Below, piece after piece: positions 4,719 through 27,740 of a DNA stretch of 29,101 nucleotides. The stretch is from a bacterium. Its GTDB lineage: Bacteria; UBA8248. The DNA is taken from positions 1-29,101 of the forward strand of contig CBDBZY010000039.1 in the NCBI GenBank assembly GCA_965213685.1, written 5' to 3'. The notes under the pieces are model-generated. The model did no database searches, was not told the DNA's origin, and was given only the letters and a program-made list of their open reading frames with translations. A program made the position numbers and the translations under genes. How positions within the stretch are numbered: the stretch's first letter is position 1; each line of letters begins with the position of its first letter.

Positions 4719-6137
4719 CTAGGGGTTCGGTTTCCTCTTGCGCCATTCGCGCGTCGCCCGTTCGTAGGCGTGGCCGATGCGAAACCCGCAAGCCTCGGCG
4801 CCGGGCAGGTTCGTAATTTGCATCGCCATCGGCAATCCGTGTCGGGAATCAAAACCCGTGGGCACCGTCAGGGCGGGAAAACCGAGAAAATTTTGCACGC
4901 CCGTCAGATTTCGTCCCAGACCGATAAAATCCATCTCCCGGCCGTTGACGGTCGCCATGGTCGTCTCGATGGGCGCGGCGAGACAGGGATAGCCGGGGGA
5001 CAAGATGGCGTCGTAAGGCGCCATCAGGTCGACGACAAGGCGTTTGAGCGCTTCGCGGCGATGGAGCGCGTCGATGTACATCGCCAACGTGGTTTTCCGG
5101 GCGTTCGCTATCCGTTCCCGCAAGCGCACGCCGTAGCCGTCCGGGCTGCTGCGATAGCGCTCTCCGTGAACGCGATGGAATTCCGCGTCCGCGATGGCCC
5201 GGCGGTGGGGGTTGATCTCCTTGGCGAAGGGGCAGCGCACCTCGTCGATTTTCGCGCCCAACCCCCGCAGCACGTCGAGTGCCGCCTCGAACGCATAGGC
5301 GATCGGCTTGTCGATGTCGACGTCGATCAGGTCGGAGGAGGTCATGAAGCGCATGCCGTCGACGCCCCGTTCTAGGTCGGCGGAGAAATCGGGCGCCTCC
5401 ATGTCGGAGGAGAACGGATCGTCCGGATCGTGCCCCGCAATCGCTTGAAGCAGCAATGCGCAATCCGCCACCGTTCGCGTCAACGGCCCTACGTGATCGA
5501 GGCTGGGCGCGTTGGGGTAGACGCCGCGCACGCCGATGCGCCCGTAGGTCGGTTTCATGCCGACGACGCCGCAAATCGCCGCTGGTCCCCGCACCGACCC
5601 GCCGGTGTCGGTTCCGAGCGCACCGGGCACCATCCGCGCGGCGACCGCCGCGGCCGAGCCGCCGCTGGAGCCCCCGGGGACGCGGGCGATGTCCCAAGGG
5701 TTGTGGCACGCCCCGTGGTGCGGGTTCTTGGTCGCCGATTCCGCGGCGAACTCCGCCGTGTTGCACTTGCCGATCATGATGGCGCCGGCCTCGCGGAGCC
5801 GCCGGACGCACTCCGCATCCTCTTCCGGCACGTTGTCGCGGAAAAAGCTGGAGCCCTGCGTGGTGCGGACGCCCGCCGTATCGATGATGTCCTTCACCCC
5901 GATGGGCACGCCGTGCAACGGCCCCCGGATGCGGCCGGCCGCGATTTCGTCCTCGGCCGCCCTCGCCTCGGTGCGCGCGCGGTCGTGGGCGACGGTCGTG
6001 AATGCATTCAAAGTCGGGTTGAGCGCATCGATCCGCTCCAGATGCGCATCCGTTGCCTCCACCGGCGACAAATCCCCGCCGGCGATGCTTCTCGACAAAT
6101 CCCGGATCGTGAGATCGCAGATTTCGGTTGCGGCCAT
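4719..6137 (-). CDS. Amidase-signature family amidohydrolase (not GatA)
   Basis: [25 protein letters not shown] and GTDTGGSVRGPA give the Lys/cisSer/Ser triad. Start MAATEICDL follows a GGAGG RBS. Lacks the GatA-specific SNLARYDG and EVKRRI motifs. Confidence 0.9.
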   Translation of the reverse strand: MAATEICDLTIRDLSRSIAGGDLSPVEATDAHLERIDALNPTLNAFTTVAHDRARTEARAAEDEIAAGRIRGPLHGVPIGVKDIIDTAGVRTTQGSSFFRDNVPEEDAECVRRLREAGAIMIGKCNTAEFAAESATKNPHHGACHNPWDIARVPGGSSGGSAAAVAARMVPGALGTDTGGSVRGPAAICGVVGMKPTYGRIGVRGVYPNAPSLDHVGPLTRTVADCALLLQAIAGHDPDDPFSSDMEAPDFSADLERGVDGMRFMTSSDLIDVDIDKPIAYAFEAALDVLRGLGAKIDEVRCPFAKEINPHRRAIADAEFHRVHGERYRSSPDGYGVRLRERIANARKTTLAMYIDALHRREALKRLVVDLMAPYDAILSPGYPCLAAPIETTMATVNGREMDFIGLGRNLTGVQNFLGFPALTVPTGFDSRHGLPMAMQITNLPGAEACGFRIGHAYERATREWRKRKPNP

Positions 6138-6362
6138 TCTTGTCCTCCCCCCCTCCCCGTTCCGCATGGTCTGGCCGAGCGCGCTCCCCGCCGCGTCGGC
6201 CTCCGTCAAAGCATGGGCTTCCGCGACTCCCCCTCGTAAAAAGAGAGGAGGGAATTCCGAACCGCGCATCACCCGAAAGCCGCAGGTTCTATCCCTACCT
6301 TTTCCGCTCGGGATGGCGCGAATCGGGATGGCACCCGGCGTTTCGGGATAGATGAACCGAGC

Positions 6363-6371
6363 ATGATAGCA
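6363..6371 (-). promoter_or_regulatory. Putative extended -10 promoter (TG-C-TATCAT) for the amidase/ABC cluster
   Basis: Minus strand reads tttgcTATCATgctcgg. No good -35 is visible. A long hairpin starts just downstream. Confidence 0.35.
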
Positions 6372-6551
6372 AAGTTCGATGCGTGCGCATAGATTCAGGG
6401 CGCTTTTGAACAAGAGAAACCACAAGAGAAAGAGGAGCGTCGACGGCTCCCGGCCGCGGTCGCGAAACGCCCCGGGGGCGCCCTGGTCTCCCGACGCACC
6501 AGACGGGGCTTTTTTCTTCAGGTGCGAGACATATCGTCCAAACCGATAGAG

Positions 6552-6580
6552 TTGACACGCCTGCCCGGCATTCCTAGGAT
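6552..6580 (+). promoter_or_regulatory. Sigma70-type promoter for the cytochrome c gene
   Basis: TTGACA (6552-6557), 17-nt spacer, TAGGAT (6575-6580), about 60 nt upstream of the ATG at 6640. Confidence 0.65.
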
Positions 6581-6639
6581 GGGCGTCTCACGAGCGAGGG
6601 GATTCCGGGGCCGCCGAGAAGAGGGAAAGGAGCGCGGAT

Positions 6640-7116
6640 ATGCGGGTTGGCAAATGGATTTGCGCGGTGATGGGGGCGGTGATTTTCACGGGCTTTTTCC
6701 TGACGCCATTCTCCTCCGGCGAGGATGAGCAGACGCTGCGCGCCGTCCAGCGGGTGCGCGTGCGCACGATGCGGGGCATCAGCCGCGCCATGCGCCGCGT
6801 CAAGGTGTACGCGAAGAAAGGAAATTACAAGCGGGTGGCGGCGGCGGCGAACGAGGTGGCGCTGCTCACGGCGGCGATTCCGTATCTGAGCCCGAAGGGG
6901 AGCAATCTGGGCAAGACGCGGATCAAGGCCAGCGTGTGGAGCCAGTTCGACGATTACAGCGCCATGGCCATGGATTCGGCGCGGCTGGCGGGAAGCCTCG
7001 CGAAAACCGCCGAGGCGGAAGACAAGGACGGCGTGTTGAAGAGGCTCGCCGCCTTGGGGAAGAGTTGCGGGCAATGCCATAAACCGTACCGGGAGAAAAA
7101 GAGAAGAAGAAAATAA
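6640..7116 (+). CDS. Class II cytochrome c (cytochrome c'/c556, four-helix bundle)
   Basis: Signal peptide; single C-terminal haem motif CGQCH followed by KPYRE; R..M near the N terminus and a ..VW..F segment typical of class II; AAGGAG RBS. Confidence 0.85.
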   Translation: MRVGKWICAVMGAVIFTGFFLTPFSSGEDEQTLRAVQRVRVRTMRGISRAMRRVKVYAKKGNYKRVAAAANEVALLTAAIPYLSPKGSNLGKTRIKASVWSQFDDYSAMAMDSARLAGSLAKTAEAEDKDGVLKRLAALGKSCGQCHKPYREKKRRRK

Positions 7117-22874: not shown

Positions 22875-24288
22875 TCAGTCCGCCGCGACGCCCCGCGCCA
22901 CCAGGTCCACGCCGTCCGCCCCGATGATCTCGCACGCGATGCGCTCTCCCGGGGCCGCCTCGGTTTCATGGAGGAACACCTCGCCGTCCACCTCGGGTGC
23001 CTGCAGCCGCGTTCGCCCGCGCAGGAGGCCCTCCCCCGTCATGCCCTCGACGAGCACCTCCGTCCGCTGGCCGATGAGCGCCTCGCCCTCCTCTCGCATG
23101 ATGCGCCCCTGCAGCTCCAGGAGCCGCGCCATGCGCTCTCTCGCAAGCGCCACCGGCACCTGCCCCGGCATGCGCGCCGCGACAGATCGCTCCTCCGGCG
23201 AGAAGACGAAGCCGCCCAGACGCGCGAAACGGGTCTGCTCCACGAAGTCGAGGAGGAGCTCGAAGTCCGCGTCCGTCTCCCCCGGGAAGCCGACGAGCAT
23301 GGTGGTTCTGAGGGCGCAGCCCGGCACCCTCTCCTTGATCCGCGAGACGAGGGCGCGCGTGCCCCGCTCGTCGATCCCGCGCCGCATGGCGGCGAGCACC
23401 GGCGTGGCGACGTGCTGAAGCGGCATGTCGACGTACTCGCACACCTTGGGCAGCTCGCGGTAGGCGTCGAGCAGCGCGTCCGTCACCCCCGCGCGGGTAG
23501 TTGTAGAGCACGCGGATCCACCCGAGTCCCTCCACGCGGTCGAGCGCCTCCAGCAGCCGCGCCAGCGAGACGCCCGCGCCGAGGTCCGCCCCGTAGCTCG
23601 TAATCTCCTGTGCGAGGAGGTTGACCTCCCGCACGCCGGCGTCGGCGAGGGCTTTGGCCTCGTCCACCACGAGGTCGAGCGGGCGCGAGCGGAACCTGCC
23701 GCGAAATCTGGGTATCACGCAGAATGTGCAGGGGCGCGAGCAACCCTCAGCCACCTTGAGATAGGCGCTCGGCCCCGGTTCCGAGAGGATGCGGGGCAGC
23801 CTTCTGCCGTAGTCCATCAGCGTGTCGGAGAACGCCTCCCGCGCCGCGCCCCGCTCCCCGCGCAGCAGCTCGGGGAGGCGATCGTACTCCCGGGTGCCGA
23901 TGAAAAGGTCCACCTCGGGCAGTCCCTGGGCGAGCTCCCCCCGGTAGCGCTCGGCGAGGCAGCCGGCCACCACGAGGGTTTCCAGGAGGCCCTCCTCCTT
24001 GAGCCGGGCGAGGTCGAGGATGGCGTCTATCGATTCGCGCTTGGCGTCCTCGATGAAGCCGCACGTGTTGACGATGGCGACCTGCGCCCCGGCCGCCTCG
24101 CCCACGAGCCGGTAGCCCGCGTCCGACAGGGCGGCGAGCATGATCTCCGAGTCCACCGTGTTCTTGGCGCAGCCCAGGGAGACGAGCGCCGCCGCGGGCG
24201 CACCGGGCGCCGTCGGCCCGGGCGGCGTCCCGCGCCGCACGAGGGGCGCCGGGGCGGTGGACTGTATCTGGAGGAGCTCCCCGCTCAT
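22875..24288 (-). CDS. rimO: Ribosomal protein S12 methylthiotransferase RimO; apparent +1 frameshift in C5 run at 23486-23490
   Basis: SLGCAKNTVDSE, NTCGFIEDAKRESI, VAGCLAERY, radical SAM motif EGCSRPCTFCVIP, DMPLQH, LVGFPGET, TRAM-region QAPEVDG. Deleting one base gives YNYPRGVTDAL. Confidence 0.92.
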
Positions 24289-25631
24289 CGCGCAGCGCCC
24301 GCCCGGGAGGCCCTGGGGTCGCAATGCCATTCCTCCATGGGCCGGTTGAAATAGCGGATCGCCACCCCGGGGAGTTCCTCCCGGAAGAGGTCCAGCATCC
24401 GCACCATGCCCATGGCCTCTCCCGCGTTCCCGACCCCGGGCAGGGTGTCGAGGTAGAGTTCGGGGTCGATGCACAGGTTTTTCATCTGGATCACGTGAAG
24501 GCCCGTGCGCCGCGCGAACCCGAGCATCGCCTCGACCTCGGCCTCCAGGTCCGTGACGCCGGGGAAGACGAGGTAGTTGATCTGCGTGTAGAGACCCGCG
24601 TCCACGGAGGCTTTTGCGAAATCCTCCACGTGGGCGAAGTCATACGTCTCGGGGCGATAATACGCGCGGTGCCACGCGGGCGTCGCGCTGTTCGTGCTGA
24701 TGCGGACGCTCTGCAGCCCGGCCGCGGCGAGCCTGCCCGCCCATTCGGGGCGGCTGCCGTTCGTGTTGAGGTGGAGGGTGCCGCGCGGCGTCCGCTCCCG
24801 GATGCGTCGGCAGGCACGCTCGATGACGCCCGCATGGAGCAGCGGCTCCCCCTCGCATCCCTGGCCAAAGCTCGCCATCGCCATGTCCGCCTCCTCCAGA
24901 TGGGGGACGGCGACCCCGCTCAGCTCCTCGGGCGTCGGGACGATTCCGATGCGCTGATGGCTCGCCGGAAACAGGTCGTCCGTCTGGAGCGAGATGCACC
25001 CGCGGCAGTCCGCGTTGCACAGCGGCGCGACCGGCAGGCCCATCTCCCACCGCCGGGCGAAGAAGTTTTTGGCAGCGAAGCAGTGAAACGCACTCGCGCA
25101 GCGCGCGAGGTGGGGGAGCAGCCGGTTGTTCGGGTGGGCGCCGCGCATCTGGGCGATCCGCCCGGGCAGGCCCGAGTCGTCATACTCCGCGGGCGCCCAG
25201 CGCGGGCAGTCATCGACCCGCACGGCGGCGCATACGAACCTCCCGGCCTCCTTGTCGAAGCCGAGCGCCGTGTAGGCCCACAGGGGGAGGGTCGCGGCTT
25301 CGCGGTCTCTCTCCGAGAAGGGAAGCAGGGTACGCATCCACCCCGGTGCGGGAAACGCGCAGGCCGCCTGCAGCGGCGCCGGCCCCTCGCCCCAGTCCGC
25401 CTCCGCCACGCTGATGAGCGCGTCCGCCACAGGGTCGCCCCCCACGGGGACGCTGTCCGGAATCGTGAAGAGCCTGCTTCCCCCGGGCAGCGGGGAGAGC
25501 TCCCCGGGATCGGGCGCCACGGGCACCGCCCCCTGCGCGCCCACCATTTCGAGCGCGGGGTGTTCGTATATGTTGCCGTCGCCGTCGGCGACCACCATCA
25601 ATGGGCACATGAGAAGGGGTGCTCCGCTCAT
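24285..25631 (-). CDS. Uncharacterised radical SAM protein with long N-terminal domain
   Basis: CNADCRGC (CxxxCxxC), SFGQGCEGEPL, HLNTNGS, INYLVFPG; additional CASAFHC upstream. Start is uncertain (MSGAPLL chosen). Its stop overlaps the rimO start (ATGA). Confidence 0.85.
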   Translation of the reverse strand: MSGAPLLMCPLMVVADGDGNIYEHPALEMVGAQGAVPVAPDPGELSPLPGGSRLFTIPDSVPVGGDPVADALISVAEADWGEGPAPLQAACAFPAPGWMRTLLPFSERDREAATLPLWAYTALGFDKEAGRFVCAAVRVDDCPRWAPAEYDDSGLPGRIAQMRGAHPNNRLLPHLARCASAFHCFAAKNFFARRWEMGLPVAPLCNADCRGCISLQTDDLFPASHQRIGIVPTPEELSGVAVPHLEEADMAMASFGQGCEGEPLLHAGVIERACRRIRERTPRGTLHLNTNGSRPEWAGRLAAAGLQSVRISTNSATPAWHRAYYRPETYDFAHVEDFAKASVDAGLYTQINYLVFPGVTDLEAEVEAMLGFARRTGLHVIQMKNLCIDPELYLDTLPGVGNAGEAMGMVRMLDLFREELPGVAIRYFNRPMEEWHCDPRASRAGAAR

Positions 25632-25879
25632 CGGGCGCCAAGCCGCGCGGGCTTTGCCCTCCCCCGGAAACAGATGGCCTGCGAGACGCCCCGCCTCACC
25701 CCAGGCGTCTTCGGCCCGAGCCGACACCCTAGCAGAACCCGCGCGCCCTCCGCCAGCCTCTCCGCCTGGACAGCGGCGGCGGGCTTCGGAATACTTCGGG
25801 CGCCCCTCTTCGGGCCTTGGACGCAGGAGGTTTCTGTGTCAAATTAAATTGCGGCGAGACGAAACGGAGGAGGTCCGAC

Positions 25880-26711
25880 ATGAACCCAGAGGAATATCTC
25901 GCTCGAGTCGCTTTGGTGGAATCCGAGACCGCGCGCCTGGCGGCGCACTGGCGCGGCTTTTCGGACGCGCGCTGGGAGGCGGACACGTTTTGCCCCGGCT
26001 GGCGGGCGCGGCACGTGGTCTCCCACGTGGCGACGGGGGGCGATTTCTACGCCCACTCGATTCGGAGGGCACTGGAGGGACTGCCGCCCGAGCCGCCCTA
26101 CGGGAGCGACGCCAAGGAGTTTTTTCGCCATTCGCAAGGCCAAGGGAGAGGATCTCATGGCCCTGTCCCGCGACGAGATGGTGGATGCGTTCGCGGCCTC
26201 GGCAGATGAGGTGAACGGCGCCCTCGAGGCGATAGGGGCGGATGATCTCGGCAAGCTCGGCTACCACCCCCGCGGCCTGACCCGGCTCGACGCCTGGATC
26301 GGCATGCGGCTGGTCGAGCTGGTGGTGCATGACTGGGACATCCGCTATGGCGCGGACGCCGACGCCCGCGTCGCACCCCAGGGAGTGGAGGGGATGATGA
26401 GCTTCATTCCGGCGAACCAGAGCCGGTTTTTCAACCTGCGCGAGAAGCCGCCGTTCGACGGGCGGTTTCTGTTTCGCTCCAGGGAGCCGGATCGGGAGTG
26501 GACGCTCACAGTGTCCGGCGTGCGGGCGGAGGAGTCCGCCGACGCCTCCGGCCCGCACGACGCGATCATCGCCGTGGACGGCGAGGCGCACCTGCTGTTG
26601 CTCTTCGGGCGCGCGAAGTGCGAGGCCATGGAGGAGGCGGCACGCTTGGAAATCGAGGGGGATCGGAGCCTCGCCCATCAGCTTCTGTGCGTTTTGTACA
26701 CGGTCTATTGA
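25880..26711 (+). CDS. DinB-superfamily / maleylpyruvate isomerase (MDMPI)-like protein with SCP2-like C terminus; apparent +1 frameshift in T6 run at 26120-26125
   Basis: W..DTFCPGW.ARHVVSHV and RLVELVVHDWDI metal-binding His motifs; LLLFGR...LEIEGD C terminus; GGAGGAGG RBS. Deleting one T gives EFFAIRKAKGEDLMAL. Confidence 0.82.
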
Positions 26712-26846
26712 CCTTGCCCGGGCCCGCGCGGGCGCACTTGCGGCGGGCGCGACGTTTGCCGACGTGATGCGGGGTTTCCGAGGGGCGGGGAATGCGGGGA
26801 TGGGGCGCCTGGTCTAACGGCGCGCGAGAGGAGGAGTCTGGCTCCG

Positions 26847-27740
26847 ATGACGCCAATCACCGAAGTGGACGGATACGTTTTCTATCCCGAGAGCAGAGGG
26901 CGGATTGACGCGATGCGTCCGGCGGACCCTGCGCGGACGCCCTGGACGCCTCTGCCCCGGCCGCTTTCGGAGTGCAGGGTCACCCTCGTCTCCACGGCGG
27001 GCATATTCGTGAAGGGCGACCTCCCCTTCGACTACGCGCGCGAATGGCGCGAGCCGCATTGGGGGGACCCCACGCACCGCGAGATTCCCAGGGCGGCCGG
27101 CCAGGATGATTGCGAATATTCCCACTTGCACGTCAACACCGAGTATCTGAAGCGCGACAGGAACGTGGCGTTTCCGGTGGACATTTTTCTGGACTACGAA
27201 CGCGAGGGGAGAATCGGCGCACTGGCCGATACGCTCTACTCGACCATGGGCTACACGCCCAACTTCCATCCCCTGGTGAAGAAAACGGCCCCTCTCATGG
27301 CGGAGAGGATGCGCGCGGAGGGCGTGGATGCGGCGTTCCTGATACCCATCTGACCGCTGTGCATGCGGTCCGTGAGCCTGCTGCAAAGAAAACTCGAGGA
27401 GCTGGGAGTCGCCACCGTGTCGATATGCAACCAGCCGGCCGTCTCCGAGAAGGTCTGCGTGCCGAGGGCGGTGTTCATCCAGTATCCGTTCGGGCGCCTT
27501 CTGGGGGATGTGGGCGACAGGGCGGGCCAGCGCGCGGTTTGCGACGACATGTGCGCACACCTCGAGGCGGCCGAGGCGCCCAACGCCTATCGTCATCTGC
27601 CCCATGAATGGCCGGAGGAGGCGGAGCAGACCCAATGGAAGCCGCTTGTGCCCGCTCCGATGCACGTTTTGCGGAACAGGGGCACGGCGCCCAAAGGGTT
27701 CGGGCACTATCAGGATGACGAGCGGCCCGATTTGGCCTGA
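26847..27740 (+). CDS. PrdB/GrdB-family (D-proline/glycine reductase selenoprotein B-like) protein, 297 aa, with in-frame UGA as putative selenocysteine at codon 169 (27351-27353)
   Basis: ORFs 26847-27353 and 27363-27740 are in the same frame. Read-through gives GVDAAFLIPI-U-PLCMRSVSLLQRKLEELGVATV, matching the PrdB pattern VDAVILT..UxxC.RS...QR..E..GI.T. PWTP, TAG, SH, D.N..FP.D, MG and PRAV motifs lie on both sides of the TGA. Confidence 0.88.
27360..27385 (+). promoter_or_regulatory. Candidate bacterial SECIS hairpin
   Basis: UGCA-U-GCGGUC-CGU-GAGCCUGC-UGCA can fold by eye into a bulged stem with an apical G-U 19-20 nt after the UGA. Confidence 0.5.

Follow-up and report, generated by a model that had tools for sequence, protein, structure and literature searches.

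The window analysed here, a stretch of 29,101 nucleotides, is the entire contig C39 of the 71-contig, 7.97-Mb assembly of a UBA8248 bacterium (genome G000), which is 94% complete and carries 3.7% contamination. On its forward strand, an open reading frame of 168 codons runs from the ATG at 26847 to a TGA at 27351–27353, and the same frame continues past this triplet with CCG CTG TGC and 125 further codons up to a terminal TGA at 27738–27740. Read-through of the first TGA yields a product of 297 amino acids encoded by a complete CDS (26847–27740, plus strand) and containing the motif I-U169-P-L-C172, in which the TGA stands as the Sec codon of residue U169 and the TGC at 27360–27362 encodes Cys172, the putative resolving cysteine of a UxxC motif. 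A Shine-Dalgarno-like GGAGGAG (26830–26836, plus strand), read from the sequence, precedes the ATG by 10 nt, and another ATG is present at 27363, three codons past the Cys. The original prediction had described two same-frame ORFs joined by a single TGA lying outside any homopolymer, and both the sequence and its translation bear this description out. The neighbours of the gene in the window are a DinB-like gene, located upstream, and a CsaA-like gene.

Profile comparisons relate the read-through product to the PrdB/GrdB family of reductase subunits. The Pfam GRDB model (PF07355) matched residues 38–165 with 39.9 bits, its cut-off being 22, and the N-terminal piece alone scored 42.0. The best NCBIfam hit was PrdB (TIGR04483), which gave one alignment of residues 31–256 to profile positions 18–235 of 238 with 116.8 bits and an E-value of 1e-33, well short of the 300 bits required of a PrdB equivalog. 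This alignment runs across the TGA, in agreement with the PrdB-like UxxC protein proposed at the outset. The GrdB, GrdF and GrdH models aligned through their C-terminal halves only, with 45–55 bits versus cut-offs of 65–800; TIGR01917 scored 49.9 against 65.45 and TIGR01918 44.8 against 602, the alignments being confined to profile positions 221–396 of 431. Since these scores fall far under the PrdB and GrdB cut-offs, the protein, as judged by the profiles, belongs to the GRDB superfamily as a distant member of about the size of PrdB and is not an equivalog of a characterised reductase subunit. An AF2 model built from a 10-sequence alignment consists of a single alpha/beta domain (pLDDT 88.3, pTM 0.90), with U169 in the loop between strand 162–166 and helix 172–185 and with C172 at the start of the helix. 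Redox-active dithiol motifs typically show this geometry, with a cysteine at the start of a helix that follows a beta-strand. Among PDB sequences, a profile search returned no match at E ≤ 0.01, and Foldseek returned none against the PDB at E ≤ 0.001. A wide VIA-align search listed generic SDR, LacI-type and other alpha/beta structures with a best Z of 7.8, values within background that were not accepted as a fold assignment.

With PrdB as its closest model, the protein might be regarded as a true B subunit of D-proline, glycine, sarcosine or betaine reductase whose partners lie in the 6% of the genome missing from the assembly, a reading which finds some room in the incomplete state of the G000 assembly and in the occurrence of GrdB-type and GrdE-type genes in some relatives of the same genus. 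The evidence on partners and context points the other way. Neither PF09338 (GrdE/PrdA) nor PF04723 (GrdA) had a match in the 94%-complete G000; the positive control, which was run for PF09338 only, detected 11 genes in five of five relatives chosen for their full-length GrdB-type genes, in several cases 1–2 kb from such a gene. The GrdE-type genes of the relatives adjoin GrdB-type genes of 440–490 amino acids and not the orthologue of the present gene, whose conserved neighbour is the DinB-like gene. Likewise, a Pfam scan of 85 neighbouring ORFs at 12 diverse homologous loci revealed no PrdA, GrdE or GrdA; these 12 neighbourhoods, varied in context and sharing no common partner, contained no prd or grd genes, with the proviso that the greedy choice of ORFs in high-GC DNA may hide genes. 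Considering also that 116.8 bits is far from the cut-off of 300 and that the 45–55 bits of the GrdB, GrdF and GrdH models stand here against cut-offs of 602–800, we find a true B subunit very improbable, and by its profile scores and the gene content of its genome the protein is not the B subunit of D-proline or glycine reductase. The absence of partners, originally claimed for the window, thereby extends to the genome, as far as PF09338 and PF04723 can report it. In this respect, the gene and its relatives provide a well-supported case of PrdB/GrdB-type selenoproteins for which no Stickland-type reductase partner was found.

The in-frame TGA is preserved far beyond this genome. A six-frame search of 60 relatives recovered orthologues of 84–87% identity from each of the 22 same-genus genomes, every one with a single in-frame TGA at this codon, and TGA-bearing orthologues were also detected outside the genus, both within the family and in a second family of the class. 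The window and 19 fetched orthologues have the TGA at the same codon while their terminal stops vary among TAA, TAG and TGA, and 22 more loci, with identity down to 41%, carry it at this codon as well. Among 80 loci of named public genomes, comprising Nitrospinota MAGs, Tectomicrobia, several Desulfobacterota, SAR324, Bacteriovoracaceae and others, the motif was found in 76 and was not found in four, the 77 sites being made up of 73 TGA and four TGC/TGT codons. Logan contigs from four public runs of one study all cover the gene and show no difference at 27351–27353. In two of these runs the contigs do not differ from the window at all and may have been the source of its sequence; those of the other two belong to a close strain that departs from the window at 31 of the 1301 bases compared, among them an A>G change at 27348 that leads to Val, as in other orthologues. 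As the TGA is kept both in the orthologues and in the contigs of the runs while the terminal stops are variable, it is neither a chance stop nor a sequencing error, and the comparisons strongly indicate that the TGA at 27351–27353 is a genuine Sec codon.

The exchange of Sec and Cys at this position leads to the same interpretation. An exhaustive HMMER search for homologues produced 1254 hits, and the best 150 cluster representatives were inspected. The site was spanned by 76 of these 150, with Cys at position 169 in 51 and a CxxC motif in 45, whereas in 44 of the 150 the predicted protein stops exactly before the site. Position 169 is hence aligned with Sec or Cys, both at the public loci and among these representatives, and C172 is invariant in the homologue alignment. 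The expectation that standard gene callers would split the gene also held, given that, of 69 homologues in the database, 58 are N-terminal pieces some 167 amino acids long and none extends over more than 56% of the read-through product. In terms of annotation, the gene and its relatives are systematically shortened in public protein sets, where the active-site half is either lost or labelled as a separate hypothetical protein.

A real stop at 27351–27353, arisen by nonsense mutation, pseudogene formation or assembly error, would leave a protein of 168 amino acids with or without a separate one of 125 amino acids starting at ATG 27363. The delivery of two separate halves by gene callers and the location of this ATG would fit such a reading, as would the presence of other broken genes in the assembly, namely the DinB-like gene at a T-run and selD over several frames. 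However, the TGA is kept in all orthologues and paralogues examined, spanning several phyla, full-length homologues carry Cys in its place, independent contigs agree on it, and the two halves are both conserved at the protein level and fold as one domain. Moreover, the residue at the position of ATG 27363 is M, N, I, P or V in the homologues, and there is therefore no conserved restart. A real stop is, in our estimation, very improbable, and the reading of a single selenoprotein is the one that we follow below.

The genome contains the genes on which Sec incorporation was expected to depend. The genes selA (564 bits) and selB (370 bits) are adjacent on contig C5 of G000, tRNA-Sec (selC, 78.6 bits) is encoded on C44 and selD (172 bits) on C31, all scoring above their cut-offs, so that each of the four genes proposed as a check was matched, selD in fragments split over several frames. 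The UGA at 27351–27353 would be decoded by the SelA, SelB and tRNA-Sec of the genome itself. A genome-wide reassignment of UGA to a standard amino acid (as in codes 4 or 25), under which the residue would not be Sec, could account for the many in-frame TGAs among homologues of the lineage, but its probability is negligible in view of the terminal stop of the gene itself, a TGA where orthologues use TAA or TAG, of the single TGA per gene, always at the redox-motif position, of the complete selA/selB/tRNA-Sec machinery and of Cys, the standard counterpart of Sec, as the commonest alternative residue.

The selD gene, which lies outside the window (G000:C31:101000–102300, minus strand), changes frame at least four times and has an in-frame TGA of its own in a G-G-U-G-S-K context. 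Judging from this context, selD probably encodes a selenoprotein itself, and its fragmentation could be due to assembly error or to real decay. It is also worth recording that the 7.97-Mb assembly of G000 is about twice the size of the 22 same-genus genomes (2.9–4.6 Mb); despite this size, marker contamination is 3.7% and each PrdB-like paralogue is single-copy in G000.

A candidate signal for decoding is located immediately downstream of the Sec codon. A SECIS-like hairpin (27360–27385, plus strand) extends from +7 to +32 nt after the UGA, with a 9-pair stem interrupted by two one-base bulges, a CCGUGA loop and a folding energy of −8.8 kcal/mol in the window. Across 32 distinct sequences, the homologous hairpin was paired in 83.8% of cells versus at most 58.5% for slid versions. 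Compensatory double changes occurred at four of 11 hairpin pairs, including C-G to A-U, G-C to A-U and G.U to A-U, and the covariation score of the hairpin was reached by none of 500 shuffles. Inspection by eye of loci L056, L060 and L061 showed that pairing is retained wherever the CGG of the 5' arm is altered, and five homologues fold individually to a position-equivalent hairpin. Furthermore, synonymous change appears suppressed in this region: in 20 genus orthologues, seven of the 10 usable codons between +1 and +11 are invariant versus 19% gene-wide, and the gene-wide minimum of synonymous diversity falls on codons −2 to +9.

Other results on the hairpin were negative or pointed to a different structure. 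The hairpin of the window did not stand out in stability from its shuffled versions (z −0.72), and a single-sequence fold of 27345–27420 gave z 0.21. RNAalifold favoured another hairpin, with a 4-bp GACC/GGUC stem, which takes in the GA of the UGA. Two consensus pairs of the upper stem are mismatched in this genus because the residue there is Ser instead of Gly, and an Rfam scan of 27250–27500 returned chance hits only (E ≥ 1.4). The SECIS criterion, in the available part of a survey of selenoprotein genes, is a stem-loop that closely follows the UGA and whose small apical loop contains G (PMC1088965); what was found here is such a hairpin accompanied by compensatory changes and suppressed synonymous change, its own stability being unremarkable. 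On this comparative evidence, the hairpin 7 nt past the UGA probably guides Sec decoding. Taking all these lines together, we assign a probability of roughly 88% to the reading that the region encodes one selenoprotein of 297 amino acids and not two hypothetical proteins, with the UGA decoded as Sec under guidance of the hairpin, and that this selenoprotein is an orphan.

The gene is not the only one of its kind in the genome. G000 contains a paralogue of 65% identity (L044, G000:C44:126936–127817, minus strand) and another of 42% identity (L045, G000:C33:53777–54451, plus strand), each with an in-frame TGA. L044 is located directly downstream of an MFS transporter gene, and this second paralogue lies behind MFS transporter genes in 13 of 15 genus loci, the MFS gene being about 2.9 kb off in L114 and L118. 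Within a third group of paralogues, from relatives G002–G022, the matches in many same-genus genomes show two in-frame TGAs in their aligned part, the second of which may be another Sec codon or the terminal stop read through by the search. A tandem PrdB-like copy of 48% identity, containing several TGA and TAA stops, was observed at about 5078–5809 of locus L055 (G044:C1), upstream of the intact gene at 6001–6807. This copy, apparently a duplicate in decay, still has P-V-U-P-I-C, a motif that is also present in L110 at 5498. There are thus three PrdB-like paralogues per genome, and the conserved DinB-like and MFS neighbours offer two starting points for finding the substrate.

The gene upstream of the selenoprotein gene (25880–26711, plus strand) encodes a DinB/MDMPI-like metal-binding protein (TIGR03083) and is a candidate operon partner. 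The Pfam model MDMPI_N recognised its C-terminal piece and TIGR03083 matched both pieces in the window, while an intact orthologue reached 69.9 bits with TIGR03083, whose cut-off is 50. The copy in the window changes frame at a T-run near 26120–26125, whereas each of its orthologues forms one uninterrupted ORF of about 275 amino acids; the break looks like a homopolymer indel, which may be an assembly error or a real frameshift. The protein contains an invariant Cys in an F/Y-C-x-G-W motif. Of the 80 loci, 23 have a DinB-like gene upstream of the PrdB-like one, and these include genera in which the selenoprotein is 59–67% identical. In L066 about 30 nt separate the end of the DinB-like gene from the selenoprotein gene, and the tblastn coordinates of other genus loci are similar. 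In L080, L081 and L083, seemingly unrelated ORFs on the opposite strand are inserted between both genes; the insert of L080 and L081, which come from small-genome relatives, contains an opposite-strand ORF of about 125–214 amino acids that starts MRTYIYVDGFNLYYRALK. A conserved two-gene unit with the DinB/MDMPI-like gene appears to be a new lead. In the literature covered here, which concerned the PrdB-like family itself, no paper linking that family to DinB/MDMPI proteins was found, and a search on PrdB-like and GrdB-like homologues yielded only work on fluoroacetate metabolism in Synergistota, which is irrelevant here.

On the minus strand of the window, the stretch 22966–25727 holds a radical SAM gene (24285–25727) and a MiaB-like gene, both divergent from the DinB-like/PrdB-like pair, and synteny of this arrangement extends through the genus to several other genera. 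Orthologues of the MiaB-like gene align to it in two pieces, which suggests another break.

By analogy with the chemistry of PrdB and GrdB and with UxxC redox proteins, the selenolate of Sec169 would attack an electrophilic atom of the substrate or a disulfide, Cys172 would resolve the adduct to give a selenenyl-sulfide, and an external dithiol would reduce the latter again. Our best guess for the substrate, to which the conserved upstream DinB/MDMPI-like metalloprotein gene points weakly, is a thiol-linked compound. Going one step further, we speculate that, in this orthologue group, the metal- and thiol-dependent protein of DinB/MDMPI fold might replace the pyruvoyl partner of classical PrdB/GrdB enzymes, forming with the selenoprotein a two-component selenoenzyme that acts on a conjugate of a low-molecular-weight thiol, while the second paralogue would act on an imported small molecule. 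Such a scheme is tentative and, in its full form, rather unlikely; if true, the pair would constitute a previously undescribed selenoenzyme that reductively cleaves or recycles a thiol conjugate.

Selenoproteins of this family have been on record for some time, and the novelty of the original prediction was overstated. In the accessible portions of the metagenomic and genomic surveys by Zhang, Gladyshev and co-workers, PrdB proteins with a UxxC motif are reported outside Stickland fermenters since 2005, and the orphan PrdB UxxC family is documented in all three of them (PMC1088965, PMC2398784, PMC1794560). The family named 'proline reductase PrdB' (pfam07355, UxxC) accounts for 42 genes of the Sargasso Sea, where it is the third most abundant known selenoprotein family, according to the available section of PMC1088965. 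Similarly, the corresponding portion of the GOS survey, in which the family also ranks among the most abundant, counts 235 Sec and 110 Cys forms (PMC2398784), and the part at hand of PMC1794560 names Anaeromyxobacter dehalogenans and Geobacter uraniumreducens as carriers. As described in these excerpts, the survey family shares with the window protein its Pfam assignment, the UxxC motif, the mixture of Sec and Cys forms and hosts that are not Stickland fermenters; the excerpts keep the name 'proline reductase' and make no mention of a missing PrdA or of a DinB-like neighbour. Within the lineage itself, which BSepDB shows to be rich in selenoproteins, the available part of the BSepDB report lists under UBA8248 the MAG FO_M_Nitrospinota_01, with 54 selenoprotein genes, and two more MAGs with 50 and 48 (PMC13326102). 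FO_M_Nitrospinota_01 is the source of our locus L098 and was placed in the same family as G000 in the search of 60 relatives.

Compared with characterised systems, the window protein corresponds, by its profile alignments, to PrdB and to the C-terminal half of GrdB. Its homology to the PrdB of Clostridium sticklandii and Clostridioides difficile, the proteins represented by TIGR04483, spans nearly the whole of that profile, with Sec in the equivalent UxxC. It differs from clostridial PrdB in about 30 extra N-terminal and about 40 extra C-terminal residues, in a score well below the equivalog cut-off, in a genome where PrdA was not found and in the lack of a prd operon. With GrdB, GrdF and GrdH (TIGR01917, TIGR01918, NF040794, NF040795) it has in common the C-terminal domain and the position of Sec, but unlike GrdB it is devoid of the N-terminal half, and neither GrdA nor GrdE was found in G000; genuine GrdB-type genes, where some relatives have them, are separate genes located beside GrdE-type ones. 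In UxxC oxidoreductases such as the Sec-containing thioredoxin-like proteins, the second Cys is likewise at the N-terminus of a helix after a beta-strand, as in the AF2 model, whereas the fold differs from that of thioredoxin; the fold searches returned only generic Rossmann-like alpha/beta structures (Z ≤ 7.8). The pairing with a DinB-like gene is the sole element for which no precedent was found in the literature covered, which concerned the PrdB-like family. Otherwise, the gene is of a kind already known at the family level, and represents a further well-supported member of the PrdB-like UxxC selenoproteins rather than a new kind of system.
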